Part shown: piece after piece, positions 12,654-35,606 of the stretch
How positions within the stretch are numbered: the stretch's first letter is position 1
How the letters are laid out: the number at the start of each line of letters is the position of its first letter
Source of the DNA: Dehalococcoidia bacterium
Lineage (GTDB): Bacteria > Chloroflexota > Dehalococcoidia > Lucifugimonadales > Australimonadaceae
Direction: 5' to 3'
Assembly: GCA_965248455.1 (NCBI GenBank)
Contig: OZ252105.1
Location: forward strand, 2,603,193 to 2,667,192
DNA length: 64,000 nt
Notes under the pieces: model-generated
Database searches by the model: none
What the model saw: only the letters and a program-made list of their open reading frames with translations
What the model was told of the DNA's origin: nothing
Translations under genes and position numbers: made by a program

Positions 12654-12667
12654 AAGAACCTTCATTC
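12654..12667. other. Left attachment junction of the integrative element
   Basis: AAGAACCTTCATTC, 13/14 identical to 35525-35538; the inner arm completes the attP symmetry. Confidence 0.75.
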
Positions 12668-13158
12668 GACGGACTCAATAACAACGGAAAACTCAGGTAC
12701 TCGTGGGCGGTCGATTTGGGTCCATTCAAGCCAGGTTGGTAAAGCGGGCTCATAAATGGGTGTGTCACGTCGTTTCCGATGAACTGTTCGATTCCTCTCA
12801 GGTGGGCCTACGTGTACTGAATTGCGAACTTTTCGATTGGCCGTCGCCTTATGACTAACCGACGAGAGTTCTGCATTACATGTGCGTCTCCTAGGGGGGG
12901 TGGCGCAGCACACGGGCGATCCGCTATCACCCCCAGCCGCGCCCATCATCGTCCTTGCTCGCCCGTCCTCCACCGCGTCGTCGTCCTTCCCAACCGTGAC
13001 CTCCTCGAAAGGGTCAGCCCGTAGCGCCTCGCCGAACATCCCAGCGGCCGCGGGCCACCTGCCAGAGTCGAAGAGTTCTCCTGCCTGGTACAGAGGAATG
13101 ACGGCGGTGGCGAAGCTGGAGATGTCATTCAAGACGGATGCGACAGTAGCTTCCTCTC

Positions 13159-16100
13159 CTATCTCCGGCTACGTCGCACCACAATTATGAGAACGACTCC
13201 AGCGACTACCCCAATCACTACTACGACAATAGCCCACCAGGGGAATCCTTCGTCCCCGCCGTCCGCCTCGGACGGCGCTGGCTCAGCCGTGGGTGTAGGC
13301 GTAGGCTCCGCCGTGGGTGCAGGCGTAGGCTCCGCCGTGGGTGCAGGCGTAGGCTCCGCCGTGGGTGCAGGCGTAGGCTCCGCCGTGGGTGCAGGCGCTG
13401 GCTCCGCCGTGGGTGCAGGCGTAGGCTCCGCCGTGGGTGCAGGCGTAGGAGTAGGTGGGGGCGGCGCTTCTTCAGTCTCGCCTCTGCCTGATTCCGACCA
13501 AGGGCTGACTCCCTCGGCGTTGATAGCCCGCACCTGCACCTCGTAGCCGGTCTCAGGCTTAAGATCGCTCAGGGTCATGGATATGCCGGTGCCGCCGTAC
13601 CCGACGTCTTTGAACTCCCCGTCAGCTTCACGGTATTGCAAGTCGTAATCCGTGATCTCCGGTCCCTGGTTATCGGGCGCCGTCCAGTTTACTGCCAGGG
13701 TAGAGTGGCTGGTGGCCTTGAGGTCGGGGGCTGCTGGACGTGCCGGTGGCTCATCAACGTTCTCAACGCTGATGGTAACTATGATCCCATCGACACCCCC
13801 TCGGCGGTCCCGGGCGCTCACCCGCACCGAGTATTCGTTCTTGACCTCGTAGTCCAACGCTGTCTTGGTGGTGAGCTGCCCTGTGCTAGGGTCCACGTCG
13901 AAGGAGGCTCGATCCATTCCCCACAGCCAGTACTCCAGCCGGTCATTATCCGAGTCCCTGGCGTTCACTGGGTCCCCCACAGCCATGCCCACTTCTGCGT
14001 CCTCCGGGACGGTGCGGGTGGTGTTGAGGCCCTCGTTGAACCTAGGCGAGCGGTTGGCAGGTTCGTCGTCCACCGCAGTGACGGTGACGTTGACCGTACC
14101 GGTGTCCGTACCTCCGTTCCCGTCCGACGCCACGTAGGTGAACGAGTCGGACCCGTGGAAGCTGGAGTTGGGGGTGTAGGTGACGGTGGTCCCGGCGCCT
14201 GTGATCGCGACGCTCCCGTTGCTTGGTGTGCTCACCTCGATGACGCTGAGGCTGTCACCGTCCACGTCCGAGTCGTTGTCCAACACACTAATGACGATGG
14301 CCGTGTCCTCGGCAGTCGTGGAGGCGTCATCCACCGCCACTGGCGGGCCGTTGGCTTGAGGGACGGCTTCCCCTTCTGCCTGGGGCCCTGGGCTGCGGAG
14401 GTTCACCGCGCGGACCTGGAAGTCATATACTAGGCCATTAAATAGGTTTTCCACCGTGTGCTCGGTGGGAAGTTGGCCTTCGATTTCGAGGATGGACTCC
14501 CAGTCATGGATGTCCAGCACGTGGGCCGAGCCGGCCCCCACCAAAGCGGTGTGAGCGGCAGTGTCCACCGCTACGGAATACCCGAACCAATCGCCCGCCT
14601 CGCCGTCTTCGTGGGTCAGCTTTTTCTTCTGGCTCCATTCACCGTTGGAATCCCTGGTGAAGACGTAAGCCGAACCTGAAGCAGAGCCGTTGTCGTCGTC
14701 CCCGTACGCACCAACCACCACGGTATCAACGTCCACCGCCACCGAATACCCGAAGTAGTCGAGAGCATCGCCATCGTCTGCAGTCAGCTTTTCCCCACCG
14801 TCCCACACGCCTCCCGAATCTCTGGTGAAGACATAGGCCGCACCGGCATCCAGAAGGTACAAGGGTGAATGAGGGTCAATGGGGTCGTGCTGATACGCTC
14901 CCACCACGACGGTGGCAACTTCCACCTCGGCATCACTAACCTCCACGGTATCAACGTCCACCGCTACGGAATACCCGAAGTTATCCTGCGCCTCGCCGTC
15001 GGAGGCGGTCAGCTTGTCGGTCTCATTCCCGTCGGCCCAGGCACCGGAGGGCTTCACGAACACGTAGCCCGAGCCCGAGTCAATGCCTTTGTCATCGTCC
15101 CCGGACGCCCCGATCACAGCGGTTTTGCCGTCCAATGCTACGGAAACCCCGAACCAGTCGTCATCGGCGCCGTCGGAGGCGGTCAACTTGGCCGTCTCAG
15201 TGTCTTCCATGGGGTTCCAGTCGGCCCAGCTGCCACTGCTGTTGGGTTTGGTGAATATGTAGGCCGAACCAGAATCTTCTGAGTCGTTTTCCTCGTCGTC
15301 GTCCTGGTACGCTCCTACTAGGACGGTGTCACCGTCCACCGCCACGGAATACCCGAAGTAGTCGAGGGCCGCGCCGTCGGAAGCCGTGAGCTTGGCGGTC
15401 TCAGTACTGGTGGCCCAGCCCCCTGTGGGCTTCACGAATACGTAGACCGAGCCTGAATCAGCGCCGGCGCCGTCGTTCCCAGGCGCCCCAACCACGACAG
15501 TATCACCGTCCACCGCCACGGAAATCCCGAAGTTGTCGTAGGCCGCGCCATCGAAGGCGGTCAGCTTGGCCGCCTGGGTCCACACACCCTCAACTCTGCT
15601 GAAGACGTATACCGCGCCAGAATCAACGCCATTGTCGTCATCCTGGTACGCCCCGATAACCGCGATGTCACCGTCCACCGACACCGCATACCCGAACTTG
15701 TCGCCCCCCACGCCGTCCAGCTTGCTGGTCTTCAGCAGGTGCAATACCTCGTATCTGAGTATGGTCTCTTTTGTCTCAACGTGTGTGTAAGCCCATTTCA
15801 GCTTCACCTCACCATTGCCCTCCTCTGGGGGCTCCAAGGCCGGGCGAACTAGTTGAGGCGGCAGAGGCTTGGCGTCGATCGCCGCCGAGGCAGGGCCAAC
15901 GCCGGTTGCGTTCTCCGCCGAGATTTGGAACGTGTACGTGGTGCCGTTGGTGAGGCCGGTAATGGTGTATGTGGTGGCGTCGGCACTGATGTTGGTTGAG
16001 TTCGCGACTCCGTCGATGCTGTAATGGTATTTATCGATCGAAGCGTCGTCGGGGTCGCCCCAACTCAGACGCACCTCTTCGTGGCCCGGCTCCGCCGCGA

Positions 16101-19100
16101 GATTCAACGGCGAGTCTGGTAGCGTACCCGCCGGTGTCGCGGTGACGTCCGAGGCATCGCCGTATGGCTGAAGAGCCTGGTTGTCCACCGCGCGGATATG
16201 GAACGTGTACTCGGTGTCGTTGGTCAGACTGGTAACTGTGTAACCGATGGTGTTCGCGACGCTGTAGTCGATGTCTTCGACGTCGATGTCGATGAAGCTA
16301 GTGCCGCCGTCGGTGCTGTACTGGTATTTATCGATCGAAGAGTCGCTGGGGTCGGCCCACTCCAGCTTCACCTGGGTGTCGCCCGCGGTTGCGGAGAGGT
16401 CCGGCGCGGCCGGTGTCGCACTTGCGGGCGTGGCATCTTTTGTGACCGAAGGACCCTCTCCGATTACGTTCACCGCCCGCACCGCAAACGTGTACGTGGT
16501 GAGGTTGGTCAGGCCGAGCACCGTGTAATTGTCGGTGCTCGGCCCGCTGTCGGGAATATTCGTGAAGGTCGTGCCGCCGTCGGTGTTGTACTCGTACTTC
16601 GTGATAGGGGCGATAGTGGCGTCAGCGGTGGCCGCAGTCCAGCTCAACGTCACCTGGCCGTCACCCGCCTGTGCGCTCAGGACGGGCGCGACCGGCTTCC
16701 CCAACGGAGTGGCGCTGGCTCCGTCCGAGGCGGGGCCTGCGCCGCTTCGGTTCAGCGCCCGGATTTGGTACGCGTACTCTGTTCCGTTGGTCAGGCTGGT
16801 CACTGTGTGATTTGTGGTCTGATGATCGCTGAGGCCAATGTCCATCCAATCGGGTATGCCCAACACATGGACCGAACCAGCATCCATGCCAGTTGCGATG
16901 TCGTCACTGTACGCCCCAACCAGTGCGAGATCACCGCGTTGATCATCCAGGTCCACTGCCACTGACCATCCGAACCTATCGTTGGCCGCGCCGTTAGGAG
17001 CGGTGAGCTTGAGCGTCTCAAAGGTGCCGGCCCAGCCGAGGGCAGGCTTGGTGAAAACATACGCCGAACCGGAATTGCGGCCGTTGTCGTCGTCTTGCCA
17101 CGACCCAACTACGACGGTATCACCCTCCACCGCAACCGACACTCCAAAGTTATCCCCTGCTGCCGCGTCGGAGGGGGTGAGTTTGGCCTTCTCGCCCCAC
17201 ACTCCCGTTTGCCTGGTGAAGACGTAGGCCGCACCGGAACCGGCGCCGGTAATGGGGTCGCTGTGCTGACTTGCTCCGATCACCGCAGTGTCGCCGTCCA
17301 GAGCTACGGAAAACCCGAAGTAGCCGCTCGGCTGGCGGTCGGAGGCGGTCAGCTTGGCAGTCTCATTTCCGTCGGTCCAGCCTCCGGAAGGCTTGTCAAA
17401 TACGTAGGCTGAACCGCTTCCTAACTCACCACGGACAGTGTCGTCCCCGTACGCCCCTACCAATACAGTGTCGCCGTCCACCGCTAACGAGTACCCGAGA
17501 TAGGCGAGCTGCAAGCTTGTGGAGGCGGTGAGCTTGGCCGCTTGGCTCCACACACCGGTACCCGAATCCTTGGTGAACACATAGGCCGCACCGGCGCCCA
17601 AACGGCCCCCGGCATCATAGAGGCGCGATCCAATCGCCAGCGTGTTGCCGTCCAAAGCTACGGAACCTCCGAAGAAGGCGTACGCCTTGGGGAAAGTGGC
17701 GGTCAGCCTGGCCGCCTGGCTCCAAACGCCGCTTGTCCTGGTGAATACATAGGCCGCACCGGAATTAACAAGGGTAGCACCGCCGTCGTACGCGTGGGCT
17801 CCAACCACTACGATGTCTCCCTCCACCGCAACGGACCAACCAAACTGGTCGCCGTCATTTTCGCCGTCCAGCTTGGCCTGCTGGGTCCAGTCACCGTTGG
17901 AATCCCTGGTGAATATGTATACCGAACCCTTCCTGTTGTTTGCCCGGTCCGCCCCAACCACGGCGGTATTGCCGTCGATTGCTACGGAAATCCCGAAATG
18001 GTCGCTGGCCGTGCCGTCGAAGGCGGCGAGAAAGTCTTCCGGGATCACCTCCGATATTTGGTACCCGGTTATCGTCGAGTTGCCGGGGTTATCCCAGCTC
18101 AGCGTCACTCGGGTGTCGCCAGCCACCGCTCCGAACCCGGTCGGCTTGCCTGGCTTGTCAATCCGGGGCGTAGCGCTGGCCCTGTTCGAGGCTGGGCCGG
18201 CGCCGGTCTCGTTTACTGCGCGGATCTGGAATGAATACCCTGTGTAGTTGGTCAAGCCGGTTACCGTGTGGGTCGTGGGCGTGGCGTTGCTTCCGGTGAT
18301 TTTGGACCATTCCGGGGGGTCGGACTGCGACAGCTGGTACTCGCCGATCGTGGGGTTGCCCGGATCATCCCAGGAAAGGATAACCTGGCCGTCACCCGGC
18401 GCGGCCGAGAGCCTCGGGGCTGCCGGTACCATCAGGGCAGTCACCGTGGATGGCATGCCATTGCCGAAATTGTTCACCGCGCGCACTGCCAACGTGTGCG
18501 TGACTCCGTTGTCCAGGCCGGTGACGGTGTATGCAGTGGTGTCCGCTTGGCTACCTGGGATGTCGCTGAAGGTCGCGCCGCCGCTGTTGCCCATCCCGCC
18601 GCCGTTAATGATGTAGTCGGCGCTGTACTGGTATTTCGTGATTGTATCGTCGCCGGGATTGGTCCAGGAAAGCGTAACCCGACCGTCGCCCGGCGTGGCC
18701 GATAGGATCACGGGGGCAGCTGGCACGGGCATGGGCACGCCGGTCACAGTTGATGCCGGACCGTTGCCGGAAGCGTTCACCGCACGCATGGCAAATGTGT
18801 GCTTGATGTTGTTGGTCAGGCCGGTTACCGTCTGGCTCCTGATCGCGGCGGCGGTATCGGGGATTTTGGCCCAGCCCGATGTCCCGATGACGTAGGCAGA
18901 GCCGGCATCGGAGACATCGTTGCCGGTGTCGTCGTCGTCGTCATTGGCGTCGTTCCTGGGCGCAGCCACCAATGCAGTGTCACCGTCCAGCGCCAGCGCG
19001 ATTCCGAACCGGTCGCCCGTCGCGGCGTTGGAGGCGGTGAGCTTGACCGTGCCAGTAGTGTCGGTCCAGCCGTTCGTGGGTTTGATGAATACGTAGATCG

Positions 19101-22100
19101 AACCGGAATCCTCGCCGTCGTCGTCGTTCTGGTGAGCCCCCACCACGATGGTGTCGCCGTACACTGCAACGGACCGACCGAACTGGTCGGTATGGGCGGC
19201 GTCTGTCGCGGTGAGCTTGGCCGTCTCGGTGCCTGCACTGTTGGTCCAGCCGTTGTCAGGTCTGGTGAATACATAGGCCGAACCGGTGCTGACCTCGGTG
19301 CCCCCAACCGTGTTCCGGTCTCCGGACGCGCCAACCACCACGGTGCTCCCGTTCACGGCTACGGAACGACCGAAGTTGTCGTTGGCGGCCCGGTCGGACG
19401 CCCTGAGCTGCACGGTTTCAGTCGTCGTGGCCCAGGCGGCGCCCCCAGACTTGACGAACACGTATACCAAACCGGAATCGGTGATGCTGTTGCCGTCCTT
19501 ACCGTACGCCCCGACTGCGATGGTATCGTCGTCGACCGCTACAGAGATCCCGAACTCGTCGCCCGTCGCGGCGTCGGTGGCGGTAAGATTGGCCGCCTGG
19601 CTCCACACACCGGAGTTCTTGGTGAAGACGTATGCCGATCCTGACCTGGCCACGCCGCCTGAAACCTCAATTTGGTCTCTGGGCGCACCGACCACGATGG
19701 TGTCACCGTACAACGCCACGGGGGCTCCGAACAGGTCGTCCGCCTCGCCGCCTGTAGCCGTGAGCTTCGTCTCGGTAATAGTGGAGGTCCAGTTGTCATC
19801 TGCCGGCTTGCTGAACACGTAGATTGCGCCCTTGTCGAGGTCGTCCCCGCGGGCCCCAACCACGACGTTGTCGCCATCCACCGCCACGGAGATTCCGAAC
19901 TCGTCACCATCCGCGCCATCGGAGGCGGTCAGCTTGGCCTGCTGGCTCCACGCACCGTTGGAATCCTTGATGTAGACGTAGGCCGCGCCGGGCCTGCTAA
20001 CGTCCAGACTGGTGTCGGGATCCGTATAGGTGGGTTGGAAGGCGCCGACCACGGCCGTATTGCCGTCCACCGCCACCGAAACTCCGAACCTGTCGTTTTT
20101 CGCGCCATCGTCGGCGGTCAGCCCGCTCTCCTCAGCGAGCTGCATTAGCTGGTACTCGGTTATGGTCGTATTCCCGGGGTCATCCCAGCTAAGCGCAGCC
20201 ATGCCGTCGCCCGGCATGGCCGTGAGGTTGGCCGGGGCTGCCGGTATCATCAAAACGGTCACGCTGGATTCATCGCCCTCGCCGGAAATGTTCTTCGCGC
20301 GCACTGCCAACGTATGCGTCGTGCCGTTGGACAGGCCAGTAACGGTGTATGCGATGGTGTCCTTGTCGCTGCCAGGAATGTCAATGAAGGTCGTACCACC
20401 GTCGGTGCTGTACTGGTACTTCTCAATTGTGTCGTTGCTGGGGTCGCCCCAGGAGAGGGTAACCTCGCCGTCGCCCGGTGTAGCTGAGAGGTTCGCCGGT
20501 GCACCGGGGACGGGCGGAGGGACATTATTAATACTGATCTTTAATGCATTTGATGAGGAAAACCAATTCGCGCCCGAGCGATAGTACCGGAAATCGTTCA
20601 TCGTCCACCCGGTGGCCGTGCCGGAATCCAGAGCGTCGGATGCCGTAGTTCTCAATAGGGGTGTAGTTCCGGTGCCGCTAAAAGTCAGGTGTACGAAGTA
20701 GAAGGTGTTTGCACTCAGCTGGGCGTCTTCGGCGGTGAACCGCACGAATCCCGGCTCTATGGTGCCCGGGTTGGTCAAGGTGTGCACCACGGTGCCCGGT
20801 TCGGCATCATTGTTCGGACTCCGCACCGACACCGTTAGGTCTTCACTATCTGTAGCACTTTGAAAGTGCACGTCGATACTTCCCAAGACGTAGCCTGTCC
20901 CATTCGTGCCCGTACGGAAGCCCTGAGCTTGGTCGCTAGACAAGTCGGCATCGACACCAACACTGGTGTCGGTAGGTTGGCCGATGTTGCTCACGTACAG
21001 GGGCACGGGCGGGAGGAGCGGCATGGCGGTCACGGTGGCCGCCTGGCCGTTGACCGAAGCGTTTACCGCCCTCACTGCCAAGGTATACTCCCTGCCGTTG
21101 GACAGGCCAGTCACGGTGTACGCGGTGGTGGTGGCGCCGCTGCCGGTGATGTCGGTGAAACTCGTGCCGCCGTCGGTGCTGTACTGGTATTTCGTGATTA
21201 AGTTGTTGCCCGGATCGTCCCAGTTAAGCGCAATCTGGCCGGCGCCCACGCCCACAGTGGCCGTGAGGTTCGTCGGAGCGGCTAGTATCGTCGTGACGGT
21301 GACGTCGTTCGAGTTTGCGGTATCGCCGTCCTCGTCCACCGCCCGTATCCGGAAGGTGTAAGTTTTGCCGTTGGTCAGGCCGGTCACCGTGTATCCGGTG
21401 GTATTGGCCTCGCCGTATCCGCTATTGGGGATCGTGGTCCACTCTCCGAAGCTGCCGCCGGCCTCCTTTTGCCGGTACTTATAGCCCGAGATGGTGGAGT
21501 CGTTCGGGTCGTCCCAGTACAGCGTCACTTCGCCAACGCCCGCCGTGGCGGTCAGATTGGCCGGCGTGGCCGCTGGAGATTGCTGCGGCTTGGCGTGCTT
21601 GCTCCCAGAGGCAGGGCCGGGGCCGCCACTGTCCACCGGCCGGACCCAGAAGGTGTACTCCACATCGTTGTCCAGGCCGGTTACCGTGTGGGATGTGGTC
21701 CCCGGTCCACTTCCGGTGATGGCGGTCCATGTGGGGATGCTGAACACGTAAGCCGCGCCAGTCTCGCTTTCGTCCCCGGGCGCCCCCACGATGACTCTTC
21801 CTCCGCCCGCCGCTACGGAATCTCCGAAGTTATCGTCCGCTGTGCCGTCGGGAGCAGTCAGCTTGACCGTCTCGGTGGCGGTTACCCAGCCCCCGCTGGG
21901 CTTGGTGAACAGGTAAACCGAACCGGAGTCACTGCCGTTGTCGTCATTCCCGTAGGCCCCAACTACCACATTGTCGCCGTCGACCTCTACCGACCACCCG
22001 AAGTGATCGTCTGCAGCGGCGTCGGAGGCGGTCAACTTGGCGGTCAACGCAGACTTATCGGTGGATGAGAGGCCGCTCCAGGCGCCCCAACCGCCGCTCG

Positions 22101-23160: not shown

Positions 23161-23430
23161 ATAACGTCCTGCTCGTCGGCATCGGATGCGGTTAGCTTGG
23201 CCGACAAGGTCCACCTACCGAATTCCGAACCCCTGATAAACACGCCAGCCGTACCGGAATCGTCGCCCCGGTACGGTGCTATCACCGCGGTATCTCCGTC
23301 CACCGCTACGGTATACTCGGATTTATTATGCTGAGTTGGGAAGTCGGCCGTCAGCTTTGCACACTTCGCGAGCTTCCATAGCTGGTAGTTGGTTATGTAT
23401 GGCGAGTCGGCGGTAGGATCGTAACAACTC
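23157..23430 (-). pseudogene. Degenerate FN3/FG-GAP fragment directly upstream of the giant gene
   Basis: ITNYQL..AKLTAD..YTVAVDGDTAVIAPYRGDDSG..W.LSAKLTASDA; its stop overlaps the giant gene ATG (ATGA). Confidence 0.6.
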
Positions 23431-25041: not shown

Positions 25042-25277
25042 GAGTACAATGATAGTCATTCACGGTATATTTTGCAATGGTGAGGCACCTTCCACAGTTT
25101 TCCTTGGGTTTATCCAGCCGCAGCGTCAGACAGCTGAGGAAACGGTGGTTGGCATCGGACACATGAAGGGGACCTCGATTTGGTCTCTTCCCGTGCTCCG
25201 TATTCGTCATAGACCGAAGCGTTTCTGCCGACCACGTACTCTGATGGACAACAAAAAAAGACCTCACATATGGATAG

Positions 25278-25320: not shown

Positions 25321-25403
25321 GTACAAGTCAGCGCCCTGTGCCGACCATCTCCTCCTCTCTCTGTTGCTGTCTTAGCTTCGTCGCCACCTTAGCGGCGCCC
25401 CCT

Positions 25404-27695
25404 TCAGGACACCGTTTGAGCCTCTCTTTCCTCCTCCCGGCTCAGCGCCCACTCGAACATGGAGAGGGTCGCGGGCTTCGGCTTCCCGTTCCTTCTGGCC
25501 GGCTTCTGCGGCTCCTCGGCCATGAACTCGGCCCAGGAGAACATCGACTGCTGGGTCTCTTCCACCACGTCAGCATGACCGTTGGCCGCCTCTACGGCGA
25601 CGTGGCTCGCGCCGTTCCGGAGCACTTCGACGAGCACCGTCTCCGGTTCCACCTCCACCGCGTGCCACTCCTCGTCCACCAGCAGCTCCTCGGAGACGGC
25701 CTCGGCGTTTCGCGCCTGGGCGAAGGCATCCTCCACCGACTCTCCTTCTTCTTCCTCCTCTCCGTTCACGATCTTCCTTGCCAACGCCAGCATGATGTCG
25801 TCCCCGTCGTCGCCGTAGGCCGCCAGTCCGTCCTCGGGCAACTCACCCTCCACCGCCAGGGAGCTTTGGAGCTTTTGGGCCACCAATTTGAGGGCATCCG
25901 CCTGGAGGGTGCCCCGGTAGGCCATGAAGATGACCTTCACGGGCCGGGTCTGACCGATGCGCCAGGAGCGGCGCGACGCCTGCCGCATGGTATAGACGCT
26001 GTAATCCGTTTCCGCCCAAACAATCGTTGGGAAGTCGATCAGGTCGAGGCCGGTCTGCACCAACCGGGGATGGCAGATGAGGACGTCGATGCCCTCCTTG
26101 ACCTTCTGCTCCACCCACGCCTCTCTGCGGTCCGGGACCACGGCGTCGGCCTTCATCACCGCCGCCCGGAATCCGTGGCGGGTGAGGATGTCCTTGATCC
26201 TGCCCGTGATGTCCCGCGTCCCGGTGTGGGTGACGTAGACCAGCACCCTCCGGCCCTCAAGCCTCTCCGCCGCCACCAGGTCTAAGAGCGCCTTCTCCTT
26301 TGGATAGAGCTTCTCCTCGGAGAGCGGCGGCACCGCCACCAGCACGTCGTCCGACTCCGGGTCGAAGACGGTCTCGCCCCGTGTGCAGCCGTCGGGATAG
26401 GCCAGCAGCGATTGAAGGTAGGTGGAGAGGAGCTTCCGTGACCCCTTGGCCAGCGCATCCGCGAGGGCGGCCCGCAGCTTGTCGTACAGCGTGCCGTAGG
26501 CTCCCCGCTGGGTGTACCCGTAGCTGTCGGGCTCGGAGTCCATCGACGAGAGGAGAATCTGCTCCTCGTAGGAAGGCAGCCCCGACGCCACGTCGGAGAG
26601 TCTGAGGAACACCGAGTTGCCGATGAGGTGGAACAACGCGGCTGGGGCGAGCCCCGGCCGTTCTCGCACCACCTTGCGGTAGCGCCTGCGCCGGCTGAAC
26701 CGTCCATCCTCCACCGACTCGTCGTCGTCCTTGCCGATGGTGTGCTCCTCGAAGCCGTACCGTTGTATCCACCTTCCCTCCTCGGAGCGCCCGAACTCCG
26801 TCCTGATGGCCGGGCTGAACCGGTACGGCAAGTGGAACAAAGTGCTCGAATACCCTCCAGTTAGGGTTCCTGTCAGGGTGAGGGAGCGGCCGCAGGAGTC
26901 GGCGAGGACGCCCGCTGCGATGCCCTGGGCGGAGCCTCTTCCTTTGTATTCGTGCACCTCGTCTGTTACGAGGAGCTCGAAGAACCCCTTCATCCGCTTC
27001 TTGATGTAGTCGGCGAGTGGATATCGCTTCGGCCCCTTGGGGTCGGCCTGCCAGAGGGCGGAGCCGCACCCGGCGCAGGTCCGCCGCTTGCGCCCCATCT
27101 CCTCGGCGGTGAGGGGCACACCGTCCTTGTCCACGATCTGGGTGGCGCAGAGGGGGCAGCAGGGGACCCGGAAGGGCTCCCCCGTCTCCTCGTCTCGGAC
27201 GAGCCCACCCCTGGATGTGGCCAACCGCTCGATGTAGGCCGCGTGCCAGCGGTAGGAGAGCTTCGCCCTCTCCCTCGACATGATGGCGAAGAGGGGGCCT
27301 GGGCCGGTGGAGAGGCGCAGCTTCTCCAGGTCGGTGATGGAGGCGACGATGGCGACGCGGGCCTTGGGCACCGTCTGCTCCACCTCACGCTTCCACTTCC
27401 GGGTCAGGTGAGGGGGTGTGAGTACGAGCACCCGCTGGAAACCCGCAGCGTAGGCTGCAGATGCGCCGATGAAGGTCTTGCCGGTGCCCATCTCCCCCAC
27501 GACGTTGGTGCCCTGGTGGGCCGCAAGGGAGAGGGTGACGCCCCGTATGGCGTCGGCCTGGGCTCCCAGGGGGGAGCGGAGCAGTTGGGGCAGGCCGTGG
27601 CCGTTCTGGGAGGGCCGGTAGAGGGGCGGGTAGGACTCCACCACCCGTTGGGCTATTGCATCTCGGTACTTGTCGATGAACTGGGCGAGGTCCAT
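25404..27695 (-). CDS. SF2 (SNF2-like) helicase with Zn-ribbon insert
   Basis: GEMGTGKT, DEVH, LTGT, VQTGLDL, QASRRSWRIGQ; CPLC/CAGC. Confidence 0.88.
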   Translation of the reverse strand: MDLAQFIDKYRDAIAQRVVESYPPLYRPSQNGHGLPQLLRSPLGAQADAIRGVTLSLAAHQGTNVVGEMGTGKTFIGASAAYAAGFQRVLVLTPPHLTRKWKREVEQTVPKARVAIVASITDLEKLRLSTGPGPLFAIMSRERAKLSYRWHAAYIERLATSRGGLVRDEETGEPFRVPCCPLCATQIVDKDGVPLTAEEMGRKRRTCAGCGSALWQADPKGPKRYPLADYIKKRMKGFFELLVTDEVHEYKGRGSAQGIAAGVLADSCGRSLTLTGTLTGGYSSTLFHLPYRFSPAIRTEFGRSEEGRWIQRYGFEEHTIGKDDDESVEDGRFSRRRRYRKVVRERPGLAPAALFHLIGNSVFLRLSDVASGLPSYEEQILLSSMDSEPDSYGYTQRGAYGTLYDKLRAALADALAKGSRKLLSTYLQSLLAYPDGCTRGETVFDPESDDVLVAVPPLSEEKLYPKEKALLDLVAAERLEGRRVLVYVTHTGTRDITGRIKDILTRHGFRAAVMKADAVVPDRREAWVEQKVKEGIDVLICHPRLVQTGLDLIDFPTIVWAETDYSVYTMRQASRRSWRIGQTRPVKVIFMAYRGTLQADALKLVAQKLQSSLAVEGELPEDGLAAYGDDGDDIMLALARKIVNGEEEEEGESVEDAFAQARNAEAVSEELLVDEEWHAVEVEPETVLVEVLRNGASHVAVEAANGHADVVEETQQSMFSWAEFMAEEPQKPARRNGKPKPATLSMFEWALSREEEREAQTVS

Positions 27696-27819
27696 TGGTT
27701 TTCTCCTTCCTTCTATAGAGGTATCGCTTCTGGCTGCTTCGGTCCTGATAAAGGGCGAGGCCCCGTGGTCCTGGAAAGAACCAGCGGGGCCTCGTGATGC
27801 GGCCCTGGGGTGGAGTCGG

Positions 27820-28857
27820 CTATGCGGCGATGTCGGTGATTACGCCGTCCCCGAGGTCCAGGGCGACGACGGTGGTGCGGAGCTTCTCCCGGTAGGTCTC
27901 CTTGTCCGGGGTCTCCTCCACCAGGACCAGCTCCTTGGTGGTCTTCCCCTTGACCAGAATGCGCCGACCGTCCGCTTCGAGCTGGAGGTTGTCCAGGAAC
28001 CCGGCGGCGATGAGCATCGCCATGTGTCCCCGACGCAACGGCATCAGGGGGCGGGTCCTCTGGTCCTTGCTGGGCCAGAGGGTATCCGTTACTTCGGCGC
28101 TGGCCCACAGGCCGGAGCGCCGGGCCTCCTGCGCCGCCGCCACGGGGTCGACGGTGCGGGTGGCGAACAGGATGTCCCCCGCATCCGAGGTGATGGCGGT
28201 GTAGATGGGGTAGCCTTGGGGAGACAGCGTCTCCGGCTCTCCCTCGGCCCAGGCCAGCACCTGCCCCTGCACCTCCTCGTCGAGACGGGGCTCCGCCATC
28301 CGGTAGCCCATGACCACCACCTGGTCGAAGGCTTCCCTTTCGGGGTGCGGGAAGGCCCAGCACCTCAATCTATAGTAATAGGAGGCGAGGTACTTGGCCG
28401 AGACCGCAAGACGCTGGCGGGGCACGATGAACACCAGGAGCCCGCCATCGTTCAGGTAGCGGGTCGAGTGGGTCAGGAAGGCGTGCTCCGTCCGCTTGCT
28501 TTCCGGGTCATGGTCGTATGGCGGGTTGAGCAGGCAGATGCCGAACGCCTGGTTGCCTATGGAGGTCTGGAACAGGTCCGCCGCCAGGGTGCGGTGCAGC
28601 CGGGATGCGGCCTCCTCAGCCCGGTCGGTATGCAGCTCCACCCCGTAGGTCTCTATGGGCATGGTGTTGTCCTGGGTAAGCCGCTCTCCCAGCTGGGCCA
28701 CCGCCTCCCCCACTCCGCAGCAGGGGTCGAGGATGCGGAGGACCTCCCGGTTGCGGTAGTAGTAGCCCGCAGGCGCCCGTATCAGCGTGGCGATGAAGTC
28801 CACCACCTTCTCCGGCGTCGGGTAAACCCCCCCTTTGGCCTGTGCTGCCAGTCTCAT
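27820..28857 (-). CDS. SAM-dependent amino-DNA methyltransferase (DUF6094-like)
   Basis: YPTP, ILDPCCGVG, YGVEL, LNPPY. Confidence 0.85.
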   Translation of the reverse strand: MRLAAQAKGGVYPTPEKVVDFIATLIRAPAGYYYRNREVLRILDPCCGVGEAVAQLGERLTQDNTMPIETYGVELHTDRAEEAASRLHRTLAADLFQTSIGNQAFGICLLNPPYDHDPESKRTEHAFLTHSTRYLNDGGLLVFIVPRQRLAVSAKYLASYYYRLRCWAFPHPEREAFDQVVVMGYRMAEPRLDEEVQGQVLAWAEGEPETLSPQGYPIYTAITSDAGDILFATRTVDPVAAAQEARRSGLWASAEVTDTLWPSKDQRTRPLMPLRRGHMAMLIAAGFLDNLQLEADGRRILVKGKTTKELVLVEETPDKETYREKLRTTVVALDLGDGVITDIAA

Positions 28858-29117
28858 GATGTCTCTCCTTCCTCATGGTCGGTCGATGTTGATGGGCCGA
28901 ACTTGCAGGGTTCGGGGCTGCAGAAGTAGCAGTCCCTCCTCGCCCTGGGTGGCGGGACGTAGTCCTCGGCGGACAGGGCCTGGAATATCACCTGCACGCC
29001 GCAGGAGTTGCAGTGGTAGATCTCTCCCGTATGGACATCCCTGTCCGGCTCCTCTATCTGGGCGAACCGCTCCTCGCAGTGGGGGCAGGTGAAGTAGATG
29101 GTCTGGGTCGTGGTCAT
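28854..29117 (-). CDS. Small Zn-ribbon protein
   Basis: CPHC...CNSC plus CYFC; RBS present; ATGA overlap with the methyltransferase. Confidence 0.7.
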   Translation of the reverse strand: MTTTQTIYFTCPHCEERFAQIEEPDRDVHTGEIYHCNSCGVQVIFQALSAEDYVPPPRARRDCYFCSPEPCKFGPSTSTDHEEGETS

Positions 29118-29146
29118 GGCTTATCTCCTCTCATTGGCCGCAGCCT

Positions 29147-29545
29147 TCAGGCAGCGAGCCGGTTATCTGACTTGATACCCACCACCTCTCCGGTGGCGAG
29201 ACTACGCTGGTAGCAGAGCGCCTGGCTGGTGCCCGCAGCCTCTGCACACGCGGTACAAAAAGCGGTGACGATCTCGGTGTGTTTCGCCACCGTCACTCGT
29301 CTGACCAGCACCGAGCCGTTGTCTGTGCTGGTGTGTCGGTAGAGCATCACCCTGGGGTCGCGCCTCTCTGCCTCAGTCGCAGGCCGATAGAAGTGAGGTT
29401 GCGCGGACGTGCACAGGTGCGTCGTGTGATCGTGCTTACAGAAACGGCAGGTCGTTCCGTCCGGCGAGAAGCGCTGCCAGGCTTTGAAATTCCGCTCCTG
29501 CCTGCGTTTGTTTGTGCGTTTGGCAATTGTCAGCGTCTTATCCAT
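29147..29545 (-). CDS. Cys/His-rich hypothetical protein
   Basis: GGAGG RBS; CRFCKHDHTTH...CTAC...CYQ. Confidence 0.65.
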   Translation of the reverse strand: MDKTLTIAKRTNKRRQERNFKAWQRFSPDGTTCRFCKHDHTTHLCTSAQPHFYRPATEAERRDPRVMLYRHTSTDNGSVLVRRVTVAKHTEIVTAFCTACAEAAGTSQALCYQRSLATGEVVGIKSDNRLAA

Positions 29546-30197
29546 ACCCTCCTCCGTTCACTGCTGCCACGATGGACTCTTCCTCTCCGGGTAGGGTCAG
29601 CGTCCCAGAAGCCACCGCCTCCGAGAGGTCCTCCTTGAGGGATTCGGGGTTGGGGTTGCAGCGGTAGGCGACCACTCCCGCCGATTGGAGTTGGGTGGTC
29701 TCCTCCTTCTGAAGGCCCCGCCGCCACAGCCAGTCCGCCCAGGAGGGATGCAGGGGAAGCGGGCTCTTCTTGTCCAGGAAGCGGTAGTGGAGCCTGGGGG
29801 CCTCGTCTTCCGTCTGGGCCAGGAGGAGGAAGGTGTCGTGTTCGGAGGCGTACTGGGCCATTTTCGTGTAGACCAACGCGTGCCAGCCACCACTCACCGG
29901 CAGCTTGGCTATCTTGGTCGTCCACGTGCCGACGGTTCCGTAGGGGATGCCGCAGCGCTGGTAGGAGCCACTAAGCGCCATCCCATCCGCGCCCTGGATG
30001 AGGTGGGCGACGTCGGGCGGTTGCTTGAGCAGGGATGCCCAGATCGCCTTCAGCGCCGTCTGGGAGCCGACCATCGAGACGAACCAGAGGCCGTCGGTCG
30101 CCTCGTCGCGGGCGAAGGCGTCGGCGGTGGCCGAGAAACCCCCGGCGTTGATGGTGTACAGGGCTTCGGGGTCGAGTGTGTGTTCGGTTGCAAGCAT
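29538..30197 (-). CDS. Hypothetical protein of the ICE-like operon
   Basis: AAGGAG RBS before ATG 30197; operonic overlap with the downstream gene. Confidence 0.7.
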   Translation of the reverse strand: MLATEHTLDPEALYTINAGGFSATADAFARDEATDGLWFVSMVGSQTALKAIWASLLKQPPDVAHLIQGADGMALSGSYQRCGIPYGTVGTWTTKIAKLPVSGGWHALVYTKMAQYASEHDTFLLLAQTEDEAPRLHYRFLDKKSPLPLHPSWADWLWRRGLQKEETTQLQSAGVVAYRCNPNPESLKEDLSEAVASGTLTLPGEEESIVAAVNGGGYG

Positions 30198-30302
30198 GGG
30201 TATGTCTCCTTTCGGTAATTGGAATGCTGATGCGCGGAGGTGTGGTGACTCCGTGGGGGCCGGCAAGGGTCGTTGCTGGGCTGCCTGGGTTTTCCTATAG
30301 GA

Positions 30303-30806
30303 TTAGAGGGCGGTGATGAGGCCGCGCTCCTTGAGGCTGACCGCCTTGTCCCCGCCGATGACCAGGTGGTCCAGTAGCTCGATTCCCAGGAGCTTGCCCG
30401 CCTCGATCAGCTTCTTGGTCAGGGCCACGTCAGCCGGGCTCGGTTCGGGGTCGTTCGAGGGATGGTTGTGGATCACGATGATCTTGGGCACCGCCTCCAT
30501 GACAGCGGGCCGGAACACCTCTGCCGGTCTGACGGCGATGGAGCTCACGTCCCCCTGGTAGATCACCCGCTGGCCCACGATCCGGGTCTTTGTGTCCAGC
30601 AGGAGGACCCGGAACTGCTCCTGGGCGAGGTGGGCCATCTCCGGGGCTAGCAGCAGCCGCACCGCCTCGGGCGAATAGACCGCCGGAGGGTCGGCGGGGC
30701 GCGGTGGATGGGTCTCCACCCCGTAGCGCACGGCCAGCTCCCCCAGGATGCTGACGTTGCGCCGGAGGGTCTCTAGCAGTGTGTCGTTGTGCTGTGCATT
30801 GGTCAT
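30303..30806 (-). CDS. radC: RadC-like JAB-domain protein
   Basis: QEQFRVLLLD, RPAEVFRPA, HNHPSNDPEPSPAD, LLDHLVIG. Confidence 0.9.
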   Translation of the reverse strand: MTNAQHNDTLLETLRRNVSILGELAVRYGVETHPPRPADPPAVYSPEAVRLLLAPEMAHLAQEQFRVLLLDTKTRIVGQRVIYQGDVSSIAVRPAEVFRPAVMEAVPKIIVIHNHPSNDPEPSPADVALTKKLIEAGKLLGIELLDHLVIGGDKAVSLKERGLITAL

Positions 30807-30914
30807 AGGAACCTCTCCTAGATGTGGATGGTCTGAAACGAGAAGCGGGGCCGCCCCGAAAATGGGAGCGGCCCCGTGCTGCGCCTGCTGGCAGGCGGCC
30901 GTATCACGATTGGG

Positions 30915-31310
30915 CTAGAAGGGTGACTTGGCCTTCACCGGCTCCTCGGCGCTGGCAACTGCGGACTCTTCCTCGGAGCTACCCCCGTTGCGGGAGTCGA
31001 GGAATACCACCTCGGAGGCGTGAATCTCGGTGCGGTGCCTGCGCTGTCCGTCCTCGGTCTCGTAGCTGTTCTGGACCAGCTTGCCGGAAACGTACAGCCG
31101 GTCCCCTTTGGCGACATACTGGTTCACCGCTTCGGCCAGGCCGGACCAGCAGGTGATACTGTGCCAGTCCGTGCTCGTCTCTCCGTTCTGGCGGTGTCGG
31201 TCGGTGGCCAGCCGTAGCTGGGTGATGGCGGTGCCGCTCTGGGTGTATTTCATTTCGGGGTCTGCTCCGACCCTTCCCAGTAGCTCTACCTTGTTGATTG
31301 TGCGTGCCAT
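30915..31310 (-). CDS. ssb: Single-stranded DNA-binding protein
   Basis: INKVELLGRVGADPE, TDWH, KGDRLYVSGKL, acidic tail ending PF. Confidence 0.93.
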   Translation of the reverse strand: MARTINKVELLGRVGADPEMKYTQSGTAITQLRLATDRHRQNGETSTDWHSITCWSGLAEAVNQYVAKGDRLYVSGKLVQNSYETEDGQRRHRTEIHASEVVFLDSRNGGSSEEESAVASAEEPVKAKSPF

Positions 31311-31435
31311 GTCGTTTCTCCTTTGTGTGTGTAGTAGTGCGGCGTTGCCGCACTCGAATGGAAATGCAGCGCCGCTCCCTTCGGAGGGGAACGGCCTTGT
31401 CCATGCGCTCCGGCTACGGAGCGTCTAGCTGCTCT

Positions 31436-31777
31436 CTACGTCCTCGGGCTCGGCTCCGCTTCAGCGAACAGCCTGTCGGGGTCCAGGGGCGCTACCGCGC
31501 TTCTCAGCCAACTCAGCCCGTCCCTTCTGACGCTGCCGTGCATCTCAGGGTCGTCGAGGGCCTGGACGTAGTGCAGCGCGGCGTTCACCACGTTGGCGTG
31601 GGCTCCGTTGTTGCAGAACACCCTCTGGGAGGCGCCCGCCATCATCTCCATGCTCGTGAGGCGCTCTACGCGGTTGGCGAGCCGGGTCTGGACCGAGGCA
31701 AGCTCGTTGGCGAGCCTTGCGATCTCCCGTGTCGCGGGCGGCATCCGCCGCAGGGTCTTGGGCGCGTATCTACTCAT
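31436..31777 (-). CDS. Hypothetical protein (coiled-coil N-half)
   Basis: GGGAGG RBS; bracketed by a 26-bp repeat. Confidence 0.65.
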   Translation of the reverse strand: MSRYAPKTLRRMPPATREIARLANELASVQTRLANRVERLTSMEMMAGASQRVFCNNGAHANVVNAALHYVQALDDPEMHGSVRRDGLSWLRSAVAPLDPDRLFAEAEPSPRT

Positions 31778-31875
31778 CTTTTCCTCCCTTCTCCTGTAGT
31801 GACAGGAATGCTGGATTCGGCAGGGTCACTCCCCCCTGAGGAATGCCACCGTTCAGCGCTCCGAGTAGGGAGCGT

Positions 31876-32934
31876 CTAGCTCACCCGCACGTACTGGGAG
31901 ACGGCCTCCGTCACGATGTCGGCGCGGGTGTCCGGGTCCAGCAGAGCGTTCAGCTTGCGGTAGTCGACCGAGAAGCGCCGGGTCTTGACCAGGCTCACCG
32001 CCCGGCCCTCGACGCTTGCTTTGGTCATCCCCCGCTGCCGCATCCACGCCTTGAGGGTGTCCAGCGCCCGGCGTTTCGCCTGCTCCGGCTCCCTCAAGGC
32101 TTCCTGCGCTTCCAGGTATGCCCGCACCGCAGCCCGAACTTCCTCGATGCTCACCTCCGTTCCTTCGTTCTCAGACGCCTCGCCCGTGTCTCCTTCAACC
32201 TCGGCTGTGCCGGGCTTGCAGGTGTTCAGGAAGGGGCAGGTCCGGCACTGCCAGCTACCGGCCCGGAAGTCCCGCTCCGGCAACTCGTCGGGGTTCTGCC
32301 CGTGGGCACCGTAGTGGTCGGCCAAATCACCGAGCCGGAAGCTGACGGCTTCCATCGCGTCCTCCACCCGCTCGGCGGGAATCGTTTCGGTGTCCCACTG
32401 GCGGCTGCCGGTGTCCATCGTGGCTATCACCACGTCGCGGGCTTCGCCGTACTTCCCGTAGGTGTAAAGGGAAGCCTGGGCCACCGACTCCGGGTGACTC
32501 CGCTCGGCCCCCAATGTCTGCCACCGCTTGTAGGCGTCCGGCCCCCTGGTCTTGACTTCGACGATCACCTCCGGCCCTCCGAAGAAGGGGAGGACGGCGG
32601 TGGCGTCGGGGTGTCCGGTGACGCGCAGGTTGGGGGCGATGAGGACCGTCACCTCCCTGGGGCTGTTGGGGTCCACCGGGATCACGTCCCAGCTCGCCCG
32701 CTCCATCGCCCGGAGCACCACCTGCTCCAGGGCCTGCCCCACCTCCATGACGGTCAGGGACTCGTCGGTCGGTGGGTTTGTGGGCTGCTGTTCAGTGGCG
32801 GCGTACCACAGGGCGCGGCGGCAGCTGCTGGCGGCGGATGCCCGCACCACCAGCGCCCCGTCTCCGTCGAAGTAGGCCGACGGTCGCGAGTAAACGTCCG
32901 CCCGGTCTCCGGTGGGGTCTTCGTTCTGGTTCAT
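31876..32934 (-). CDS. PD-(D/E)XK nuclease (Cas4/RecB-like exonuclease)
   Basis: RASAASSCRRALWY, GHPD, IVEVKT, QASLY, CRTCPFLNTC. Confidence 0.8.
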   Translation of the reverse strand: MNQNEDPTGDRADVYSRPSAYFDGDGALVVRASAASSCRRALWYAATEQQPTNPPTDESLTVMEVGQALEQVVLRAMERASWDVIPVDPNSPREVTVLIAPNLRVTGHPDATAVLPFFGGPEVIVEVKTRGPDAYKRWQTLGAERSHPESVAQASLYTYGKYGEARDVVIATMDTGSRQWDTETIPAERVEDAMEAVSFRLGDLADHYGAHGQNPDELPERDFRAGSWQCRTCPFLNTCKPGTAEVEGDTGEASENEGTEVSIEEVRAAVRAYLEAQEALREPEQAKRRALDTLKAWMRQRGMTKASVEGRAVSLVKTRRFSVDYRKLNALLDPDTRADIVTEAVSQYVRVS

Positions 32935-33437
32935 GGTCTGTCCTCCTTCGTTCCTATAGATGAGAAGCGGGACCGCCTCCGTGGAGACAGCCCCGCTAGT
33001 TGAGCAACCATCGGTTGTGTGCGCCGCTCATGCGGCGCTTTGGATTCGGATTCCTCTATCCCCTCTTTCGCCCTCTCTTCTCGCTCCTTCAGATGGAGCT
33101 TGAGGATCTGGGAGATGCCATCTGCGAGGCCCAGCACCCACACGCTCGACCCATCGCTCAACTGATTGGCGAAGGGCTGCATCTCAGCTATGCCCTGGCA
33201 CTGGTCCACGATCTCGGCGACGGGCGTGCCACGGCGCAGGTGAAGGGAGATGAGTCGGCAGGCCAGCTCTGTTACGCCAGAGGCGAAGGAGCCGGCCTTG
33301 CCTATCTGCCCAAAGACCTCGAAGGGCTCGCCCTCCTTGTCCAGGGACACCGTGACGTACAGGTTGCCATGCTCGGTATGGAGCTTGGTCGTGCTGCTAG
33401 GCAGCGTCCGGGGCCTGGGCCGTGTCGCCGGGGTCAT
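32931..33437 (-). CDS. Stand-alone TSCPD-like domain (class II ribonucleotide reductase C-terminal part)
   Basis: RPRPRTL..T.KLHTEHGNLYVTV..PFEVFGQIGKAG..RLISLHLRRG..IVDQCQGI..LADGIS. Confidence 0.75.
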   Translation of the reverse strand: MTPATRPRPRTLPSSTTKLHTEHGNLYVTVSLDKEGEPFEVFGQIGKAGSFASGVTELACRLISLHLRRGTPVAEIVDQCQGIAEMQPFANQLSDGSSVWVLGLADGISQILKLHLKEREERAKEGIEESESKAPHERRTQPMVAQLAGLSPRRRSRFSSIGTKEDRP

Positions 33438-33754
33438 GGCCCCTCCCCCTTCTCAAGGAGATAAGGAAGCGCTGGGGCGTAACGGTCGAAGAATTTGGCG
33501 ACCTTGAGGGCACACTCCCGGTCCCTCTCGTCGCCGATGCCCAGCAGCGTCTGGACAATGACCTCTTCGCAGTCCTCTTCGGCGTAGGCCGGGGTCAGCA
33601 GCGTCTCTTGGACGGCAGGGGGAAGGGAGTCCCACCGCTCCCGGCTCAGCTTCAGCCCGCCGTGGCTGGCCGTTTCGATCCGCACCACGCCCTCGGCCAG
33701 CGCTACGACGTCCTGGGGAGGTCCCCACGGGGTATACATAGTGTTCACTTTCAT
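33434..33754 (-). CDS. Small conserved mobile-element protein (DUF7007-like)
   Basis: TPWG..Q..AEGV..TASHGGLKLS...EEDCE motif (recalled family). Confidence 0.65.
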   Translation of the reverse strand: MKVNTMYTPWGPPQDVVALAEGVVRIETASHGGLKLSRERWDSLPPAVQETLLTPAYAEEDCEEVIVQTLLGIGDERDRECALKVAKFFDRYAPALPYLLEKGEGP

Positions 33755-33844
33755 GTCGTCTTCCTTTCTGTCCTGTAGATGAAAACGGGGCTGCCCCGGT
33801 GTGGAGACAGCCCCGTTACGTGGGCTCGCTATGGCGCGTTGGGC

Positions 33845-34033
33845 TCATGCCGCTTCCACCACCTCTGCTTCCCGCGTCTGCTGGAGCTTCCGGGTCGCCC
33901 CTTGCACCAGCGGCGTCAGCTCCGATGCCGATACCGCCTCAAGGTCCCTGCCCGTCTTGCCCTTGACCGCAGCCCGCACCTGCTTCTCGTCGAACCCCTG
34001 CATCGCCCCCAGGTCGATCAGCGTCGCCCGCAG
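33845..34033 (-). pseudogene. Orphan 3' end of a gene whose 5' part was deleted
   Basis: LRATLIDLGAMQGFDEKQVRAAVKGKTGRDLEAVSASELTPLVQGATRKLQQTREAEVVEAA* with no proper start; abuts the truncated integrase. Confidence 0.55.
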
Positions 34034-34053
34034 CGGCGGAGCAAAGGAGTCGG

Positions 34054-35541
34054 CTGCGCTACTGCGAGAGCAACGGACTCACTATCAACGCCCGCTACCA
34101 CGAGGTGGGCCGGGGCTGGTCGAAGAAGCGTCCGGAATTTCAGCGGATGCTGGCCGACGCCAGGAAGGGACGCTTCGATACCATCGTCTGCTGGAAGTCC
34201 GACCGCCTCAGCAGGGGGATGTACCCCGCCGCCGCCCTCATGGAGGTCGTCGAGGCCCACCAGATTCGGCTGGAAGCCGTCATGGACGTCATCGACGTGA
34301 AGACCTTCGGCCTCATGGCGGCCATCGGCAAGATCGAGTTGGACAACTTCCGGGAGCGGTCCACTATGGGCAAGCGGGGGACGGCCAAGCAGGGACGGGT
34401 GCCCACCGGCGGCCTCCCCTACGGATACCGCATCGGGGACGACGGCAGGCCCGGGGTGATTGAGGAGCAGGCCGAAGTTGTGCGCCGCATCTTCCACATG
34501 TACATCGACGAGGGGATGGGGTCCTACTCCATTGCCGTGCGGCTGACCGACGAGGGGACCCCCACCCAGACCGGCAAGCTGCTGTGGCTTCAGTCCCGCG
34601 TGCACCACATCCTGGGTAATGCCACTTACGCGGGTACCTGGGTCTATGGCAAGTACCGCCACGTCTCCACTGAAGACGGTATGAAGGTCTACGACCAGCC
34701 GAGGGAGACCTGGATTGAGATCCCGATGCCGCAAATCATCGACGACGAGACCTGGGAGCGGGCGCAAGCGCTGAAGAAGCAGCGGAGCAGGAGGGCCAAG
34801 AGGAACACGAATGTGCTCTACCTGTTGCAGCACCTTCTGAAATGCGGCGAGTGCGGCCACAACTTCCATGCAAGATGCACCCGGAGCACCACCAACGTTC
34901 GCAACGGCAAGAAGTACCGCTACGACCTTCCCACTCCCAACCGATACTACATGTGCAACGGAATGCAGAGTATGCGCCTGCGCTGCCGAGAGCGTCCCTA
35001 CATCCGGGCTGAGCGATTGGAGGAGTCGATATGGAGCGAGGTGAAGCGGATAATCCAGAACCCCGACCTGATCGTCGCCGGTATCGACACCCTCGATTCT
35101 CCAGAGGGCGGCGGATTGGAGGAGGAGGTCGCCCAAGCCGAGCGAGACCTGCGGAGCATCCAGATGGAAGAGGACCGCGCCATCAGGCTGTTCGTGTCGG
35201 GGAAGATCGCCGAGGCCCAGCTCGACATTCAGCGCAAATTCATCACCGAGCGACTTGAGAGCGCCAGGGCGAAGTTGGACGATTACCATGCTCAGGAGGT
35301 GGGCGGAGCTGAGAAGCGGCGGCTGATGGAGGCTGTCCTAGCCTGGGCGAGGAACGTCGGCCAGGGCATTGACGACCTGACCCCCGAGCAGCGCAAGGAG
35401 ATTCTCCAGATGGTTTTGGAGCAGGTCGTCATCGACAGGGACAACAACGTGGACATCACGCTGGCTATACCCATCGACGATGAGTCTCCTGACCCTGAGC
35501 CTGAGTCCGTGTCAATTGCGTCCAAAGAACCTTCGTTCTAA
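34054..35541 (+). pseudogene. Large serine recombinase, 5'-truncated (catalytic YxRxS missing)
   Basis: RYCESNGL..RPEFQRML..DRLSR; PYGY; recombinase domain; CGECG..YYMC Zn ribbon; coiled coil. The in-frame upstream sequence to the stop at 33964 has no YxRVS. Confidence 0.85.
35525..35538. other. Right attachment junction, overlapping the last codons of the integrase
   Basis: AAGAACCTTCGTTC; the integrase stop TAA follows immediately. Confidence 0.75.
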
Positions 35542-35606
35542 GGTTTAGGCTGGTGGTGTACAAAGCGGGCGTGCGCGCGCTGGCGCTGGTCAGGGAATAG
35601 CCCTTC

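Follow-up and report, generated by a model that had tools for sequence, protein, structure and literature searches.

A probable remnant of a serine-recombinase integrative element, inserted into a dispersed target motif and later immobilised, in a Dehalococcoidia bacterium

Introduction

Integrative conjugative elements of the Tn5397 type carry a serine recombinase at one end, a module for DNA processing and transfer, and variable cargo at the far end. In phiC31/Bxb1-type systems, the attachment (att) site attP is an imperfect inverted repeat of ~50 bp with a short crossover, attB is distinct from it, and the reaction is conservative, leaving no target duplication beyond the shared core. Computational surveys have also recovered multi-targeting large serine recombinases (LSRs), where one clade acts at many places that share a degenerate target. 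Here we analyse a 64,000-nt stretch of DNA from a Dehalococcoidia bacterium (contig OZ252105.1, positions 2,603,193 to 2,667,192; hereafter the window, whose own numbering is used unless a contig is named), in which an initial annotation had placed an integrative element between 12654 and 35538. Comparison of sequences makes it very probable that window positions 12664-35531 are the remnant of an integrative conjugative-type element that an LSR inserted into one copy of a dispersed motif of ~60 bp, and that later suffered a deletion and was immobilised.

Class Dehalococcoidia includes Dehalococcoides, the genus of the ssrA islands. According to their published account, these islands have a large serine recombinase at the element edge next to variable cargo, as here, and the gene of their serine integrase, DsiB, overlaps attP/attL such that the integration state sets the stop codon (PMC3146451). 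An overlap of integrase gene and att site recurs in the window, where the crossover lies three codons before the recombinase stop codon; the hosts are likewise similar, relatives of this LSR being found in records titled Dehalococcoidia. The ssrA islands integrate at the ssrA 3′ end with a 20-bp repeat of ssrA, contain a second, small serine recombinase and are described as mobilisable rather than conjugative (PMC3146451). In contrast, the present element uses a dispersed motif, is accompanied by no second serine recombinase (there is one Resolvase match in the genome) and has intact relatives with relaxase-like and coupling-protein-like genes. Nor is it integrated at ssrA: the tmRNA gene of this genome (591197-591548) is 2 Mb away, with no copy of the motif downstream. 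In a literature search for serine-recombinase integrative conjugative elements, covering main texts, Dehalococcoidia went unmentioned among the matches listed.

Results

The initial annotation started from a 14-nt direct repeat, AAGAACCTTC(A/G)TTC, which indeed has two copies in the window (12654-12667 and 35525-35538) and no third. An uninterrupted version of the target was found in the same 2.8-Mb genome (G000), at a paralogous site on the minus strand (G000:C1:~675020-674975). This site agrees at 35/36 positions with the 36-nt empty site that had been predicted from the repeat, and at 70/72 with a 72-nt site rebuilt from both flanks, as compared to only 39-48/72 for four other copies of the motif. 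Like an attB, it differs from attP and stands unbroken at a place that lacks the element. When the genome was compared to itself, window 35525-36334 matched G000:C1:675003-674195 with 97.9% identity over 810 bp, starting exactly at the repeat; on the left side, 32 nt of the paralogous site match window 12632-12663, the homology stopping at 12663. The paralogous locus is ordinary chromosome, with 2-oxoacid dehydrogenase genes, ThiI, an aldolase and a carboxymuconolactone-decarboxylase (CMD)-family gene. A second 'Recombinase' match 10 kb from it was dismissed as unrelated, being 25% identical, devoid of a Resolvase domain and located among housekeeping genes.

Both junctions resolve into arms, all given here on the plus strand. 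At attL, the B arm (12632-12660), i.e. the left half of the target motif, matches the intact paralogous site at 31/32 positions and is followed by a crossover-containing TTC (12661-12663) and by the P′ arm (12664-12736), the conserved left end of the element, through which the recombinase frame would read on in the excised circle. At attR, the P arm (35506-35531), within the last recombinase codons, precedes the crossover-containing TTC (35532-35534) and the B′ arm (35535-35561), i.e. the right half of the target motif, which is identical to the paralogous site (40/40) and fits the family consensus. Both TTC stretches were delimited by comparing arms across the family. The inner arms are inverted repeats of each other, as had been noted from the start for 18 bp on either side of a central TT (13/18 by hand count). 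By script, 16/26 positions pair about TT, a moderately unusual value that was reached or exceeded in 0.32% of 20000 random genome pairs (best of nine centres; null 0.0032). Joined at the crossover, they form an imperfect inverted repeat of ~50 bp, reminiscent of phiC31/Bxb1-type attP sites; here, however, attP and attB share a 10-nt core plus further arm similarity, and attP lies inside the integrase frame.

The same junctions recur across a large family. A recombinase scan of species-representative genomes returned 378 relatives, of which the best 80 (77-93% identical) were kept, all from records titled Dehalococcoidia or Chloroflexota metagenome-assembled genomes (MAGs). Together with a metagenome contig locus (L077) and the window, these made up 82 loci, 62 of which are distinct attR junctions; in each of these, the 3′ end of the recombinase gene holds the P arm, after which come a semi-conserved half-site of ~27-30 nt and then unrelated sequence. 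Information per position is 1.38 bit in the P arm, declines over the three 10-nt blocks that follow (0.86, 0.69 and 0.34) and is 0.09 beyond +31, and this drop past the half-site argues that each element sits at a different place within a similar half-site. On the left, querying the inner arm in five other genomes carrying relatives yielded nine further attL junctions. All have P′ in common (~85 nt resembling window 12664-12736), preceded in eight of the nine by a B arm with unrelated flank further out; window 12634-12736 is 88% identical to the attL of G041:C9, and window 12633-12713 is 95% identical to that of G041:C5. Blocks of TCCGT, CAATTG-like and GTC sequence are kept family-wide in both P (62 junctions) and P′ (10 junctions). 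Conserved P and P′ arms thus meet variable B and B′ flanks, and with the paralogous site, the 62 attR and the nine further attL junctions, both ends that the initial annotation had rebuilt for an LSR are true att junctions.

The family also narrows the position of the crossover. Position -2 varies with P and position -1 with B, while the base after CTTC is always A in attL and variable in attR; the P-, B- and B′-linked variation confines the crossover to TTC. We infer that strand exchange takes place in TT (or TC): the central TT proposed initially is allowed, and the comparison fits TC alike. Remnants of several elements may have piled up in tandem at G043:C2:375918-379797, where a 4-kb segment has the inner left arm three times on the same strand, at a distance of 17-23 kb from a recombinase gene.

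The recombinase gene of the window (34059-35541, plus strand) is broken: it lacks its first 41 codons, the catalytic serine being among those missing. Within it, the open reading frame (ORF) 34105-35541 (plus strand) matches Recombinase (PF07508; 82.5 bits) and then Zn_ribbon_recom (PF13408; 44.4 bits), both above cut-off, and Resolvase (PF00239) is matched from profile position 44, or from 18 when the frame is read upstream. The catalytic N-terminus, including the YARVS motif, is present in the relatives G041:C9 (gene at 45609-47216) and L077, the latter an intact relative at 81% identity. At the other end of the gene, the right copy of the 14-nt repeat falls within the last five codons. Across the whole 2.8-Mb genome, this broken recombinase is the single Resolvase match; given the loss of its catalytic N-terminus, the element cannot move now.

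What the window copy has lost is apparent from an intact relative of ~42 kb, which is complete on one contig (G041:C9; attL ~5029-5131, attR ~47216) and collinear with the window. C9 17501-25523 corresponds to window 25392-33451 (75%; the backbone from helicase to TSCPD gene) and C9 45734-47220 to window 34059-35545 (92%). Between these, window 33845-34054 (minus strand) is the 3′ remnant of a Rad52/22-family gene, of which 33897-34054 aligns to C9 26393-26550, inside the Rad52 gene of G041; C9 26551-45733 is absent from the window, which places the junction of a 19.2-kb internal deletion at 34055-34058. Homology of three metagenome contigs to the window begins at 34059-34061, and in public run X8 a 303-nt contig diverges from the window at 34060, a weak hint in line with relatives that have not undergone the deletion. 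In G041:C9, the 19.2-kb stretch contains the 5′ part of Rad52, a CHC2/Toprim primase, regulators, DUF3800 and the first 41 LSR codons with YARVS. The same stretch further encodes a relaxase-like protein (Replic_Relax, 28.5 bits; cut-off 25.3), a coupling-protein-like protein of 1000 amino acids (aa) (TrwB_AAD_bind, 24.8 bits; cut-off 20.5) and a TrbL-like protein that scores below its cut-off. No relaxase was found among the window ORFs scanned, and a type IV coupling protein is absent from the window.

These comparisons suggest a sequence of events. The LSR encoded at the right end of the element would have inserted it into a copy of the motif; at that time, the element would have carried the 19.2-kb module of relaxase-like, coupling-protein-like, primase and regulator genes; and a deletion between the Rad52-family gene and LSR codon 41 would have removed this module together with the catalytic serine, fixing the element and its cargo. 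The arrangement is that of Tn5397-type elements, with the difference that transfer genes occur here only in the relatives, partly below family cut-offs, and are lost from the window copy. Recombinases at 57-63% identity within the genus (G003, G020, G021, G009) were set aside because they belong to a sister element type that differs in its 3′ end and whose element ends could not be fixed; in comparison with the window, the same gap recurs in this type and measures about 17 kb. In two of these loci (L037 in G020 and L040 in G003), the 62% identical recombinase frame runs without a stop into the next gene (1109 and 812 aa, respectively), and in three other genomes a TGA overlaps the ATG of the next gene.

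The target is itself a repeat. Additional intact copies of the motif occur in G000, G010, G016, G021 and G213, and a profile built from five full copies recovered, in this genome, those five plus the attL and attR halves; a pattern search detected the motif in four of the 22 genomes of the genus. Multi-targeting recombinases use loose pseudo-sites, whereas each place occupied here is one copy of a repeat, ~60 bp or more in length, that occurs naturally. The left edge of the motif resembles a tRNA 3′ end (GCCCACC) because two copies adjoin real tRNA genes: the one at G000:C1:1745690-1745830 begins in the last 6 nt of tRNA-Val(GAC), and L099 (G016:C24) is placed likewise at tRNA-Glu(CTC). A tRNA is not the general target, as the nine occupied sites inspected in other genomes are all without one. 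Rfam searches, run on the window at the gathering threshold and on the intact motif at E values up to 10, returned tRNA-Gln only and nothing for the motif; three motif copies folded on both strands gave z-scores of -1.5 to +0.7, which does not argue for either a structured RNA or a terminator; and a simple terminator scan matched a neighbouring hairpin only. Looser versions of the motif lie downstream of tRNA-Ala(GGC) and tRNA-Ile(GAT), and paralogues of the giant FG-GAP protein described below stand next to another full copy (G000:C1:431045-432097, 432416-432485 and 436330-439612).

As attP lies inside the recombinase frame, the frame in the excised circle would extend by 27 further codons for the window and by 22-39 codons for nine of the ten attL junctions. 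Variable columns in this tail are spread over the three codon positions as 12/14/15, without the bias that coding constraint would leave. We consider it unlikely that the recombinase gene is built across attP so that a circle-only C-terminal tail (~25-35 residues) is replaced on integration, switching between an integrating and a resident enzyme, with the motif (at least 60 nt) serving as a dedicated multi-copy landing pad that spreads with the elements in Dehalococcoidia.

Inside the element, the stretch from attL to the helicase gene is variable cargo, holding insertion sequence, ThiF and JAB genes in G041 and an FG-GAP/fn3 protein plus AAA_14 in the window. The window cargo, on the minus strand as are all genes up to the Rad52 remnant, comprises a giant surface protein of 3351 aa (13159-23214) with 27 FG-GAP_2 and 10 fn3 repeats as well as cadherin-like and Big_9 domains; a 253-aa FG-GAP ORF (23157-23918), which overlaps the start of the giant gene and may be a shifted N-terminal part of its product; and an AAA_14/DUF4143 ATPase (23818-25059), homologues of which lie away from the element backbone in the relatives. 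The conserved backbone opens with a ResIII/Helicase_C helicase (25404-27695) and goes on with a DUF6094/N6-type DNA methyltransferase (27820-28857), a RadC-like JAB protein (30303-30806), a single-strand binding protein (SSB; 30915-31310), a Cas4-domain/RecE-like exonuclease (31876-32934) and, within 32931-33754, a TSCPD-domain protein (32931-33437) and a DUF7007 protein (33434-33754). Several secreted proteins within and outside the element have Pro/Thr-rich linker repeats (12174-12443, 13250-13473, 47935-48081 and 49213-49458).

The element is nested in a larger block. In all five sister-species loci fetched for the purpose, a cupin gene (8822-9976 in the window) is followed within 48-140 bp by an amidohydrolase gene (36389-37384); sister-species homology ends at 9976-10041 and resumes at 36371-36384, and the cupin gene has different neighbours in two other loci. 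The extra block here, absent between these two genes of the sister species, thus spans 10087-36375 (26.3 kb). A 20-bp direct repeat marks both of its ends, the left copy at 10067-10086 (28/29 matches over 10058-10086 to 36367-36395 on the right) and the right copy at 36376-36395, native sequence that forms the 3′ end of the amidohydrolase gene. Outside the element, the block holds the broken gene of a secreted, protease-like HExxH protein that carries a signal peptide along with a Pro/Thr linker (10130-12521, minus strand). The gene is split into three ORFs (10130-11128, 11132-12118 and 12123-12521) and at the DNA level is 80-84% identical to frames that are intact in four genomes of other families and encode 794-953 aa. 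On the other side is a second copy of the CMD gene (35607-36176, minus strand), within the 97.9% match to the paralogous locus. Beyond this gene, at 36224-36240, the left part of the motif recurs in truncated form, such that the window CMD gene is bracketed by motif pieces of the same orientation; in G021, a full motif occupies the corresponding far-side position (L032, G021:C1 ~1400-1450).

Other repeats were noted in the window and genome. The genome is rich in insertion sequences: window 3092-4312, 4610-5664 and 51794-53017 are repeated elements with four, about 20 and seven further genome copies, respectively, at 93-99.9% identity, the first encoding a DDE transposase. A 300-nt direct repeat (46359-46658 and 48510-48809; 87-88%) has its second copy just upstream of tRNA-Gln (48871-48944). 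Three tRNA genes of G000:C1, tRNA-Lys(ctt) at 1122916, tRNA-Arg(cct) at 2104312 and tRNA-Glu(ttc) at 2689368, share a AGTTGTTAC-type repeat downstream, which looks like the end of another tRNA-targeting island family. Rows for public runs labelled sponge metagenome account for small shares, from which we claim no habitat; depth values in the public runs cannot be compared from gene to gene.

Discussion

That the repeat is a chance match, and 12654 and 35538 no element ends at all, would be suggested by the 14-bp repeat taken alone, which is at chance level: a 300-bp segment around the recombinase stop codon has eight matches at 13/14 elsewhere in the window in direct orientation (five distinct places), and 60 random 300-bp anchors average 23, i.e. 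more than the recombinase-stop anchor. Matches at 13/14 are hence to be expected by chance. This explanation is contradicted by the intact paralogous site and by the attR and attL junctions of the family, which leave it practically no probability. Serine integrases are common in phages, and Rad52, SSB and the RecE/Cas4-like exonuclease form a phage-like recombination module, such that the element might be a prophage rather than conjugative or mobilisable. We regard this as very improbable, as no structural or packaging family was found among 10 window proteins scanned against PHROGs, nor among 20 proteins of the G003 relative and 21 of the G041 relative scanned against Pfam, and as the intact relative bears relaxase-like and coupling-protein-like genes.

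Besides the chance level of the bare repeat, several points weigh against an LSR-inserted conjugative-type element. Neither recombination nor an excised circle nor an empty site at this locus was observed, and a search of the genus for the exact empty site did not find it in the 21 other genomes. The paralogous site is matched over 32 bp on the left versus 810 bp on the right, from which it follows that the flanks differ in history. Matches to a mating apparatus are weak and confined to relatives (TrbL/VirB6, 22.3-25.0 bits, cut-off 25.9; PrgI, 17.6-17.8 bits, cut-off 27). The adhesin and AAA_14 are inside the element in no relative examined; the earlier proposal that adhesin, AAA ATPase and DNA-processing operon arrived as one therefore holds insofar as all three lie between the attL and attR of one element family, while the position of the first two in a variable cargo slot makes their joint arrival plausible, not established. 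Finally, synteny with the sister species breaks at 9976/10086 and 36376 and not at the att sites, an outcome that the initial annotation had itself set as a refutation. These breakpoints lie off the att sites because the element is nested in the 26.3-kb island with its own 20-bp direct repeat.

The 26.3-kb block is separate in origin from the element and may have come here in one piece or in two steps. The whole block may have been the unit that reached the locus, as a circle entering by a single crossover in the 20-bp identity at the amidohydrolase 3′ end, with the element having integrated earlier, in a donor. This account, which is nested with the insertion of the element by an LSR and not exclusive of it, has in our estimate close to an even chance of being right. 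It fits the direct succession of cupin and amidohydrolase genes in five of five sister loci with homology breaking at 9976 and 36371-36384, the exact 20-bp repeat at both ends with weaker similarity further out, and the left flank gene, which resembles genes of other families (80-84%) while the genus offers nothing close to it at the DNA level; in G213, moreover, an intact motif lies upstream of the protease-like gene, as in the window. However, no recombinase for the 20-bp repeat was found in the block, whose only Resolvase match is the broken LSR, no donor with such an arrangement was found, and the 97.9% identity of the CMD flank to a second locus of this genome suggests a local origin. The serine-recombinase event may have preceded the arrival of the island at this locus. 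Somewhat more tentatively, and at less than even probability, a small island of 3.4 kb (broken protease-like gene, motif and CMD copy) came first, and the element then integrated in place into its motif. Put together, the half-motifs at 12632-12663 and 35525-35561 yield a complete target, and the element family integrates at many different motif copies, both as this order of events would have it; yet no genome was found with the small island alone, and the flanks of the motif differ in affinity, the left one being foreign and the right one resembling the host's own genome.

The element, now immobilised, belongs to a widespread family of serine-recombinase elements, of a kind already known. Its value lies in the mapped natural site set for one LSR clade, with a single attP that is conserved and an attB that exists in many variants (62 right and 10 left junctions), which is raw material for testing the specificity of large serine recombinases. 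The named records of the relatives are all MAGs (Dehalococcoidia/Chloroflexota). In these uncultivated hosts, the data show elements bearing conjugative-type genes to be both common and present in multiple copies. Locally, the element accounts for the presence of a 3351-residue surface protein in a block that is absent from the sister species, and for the immobility of that block.

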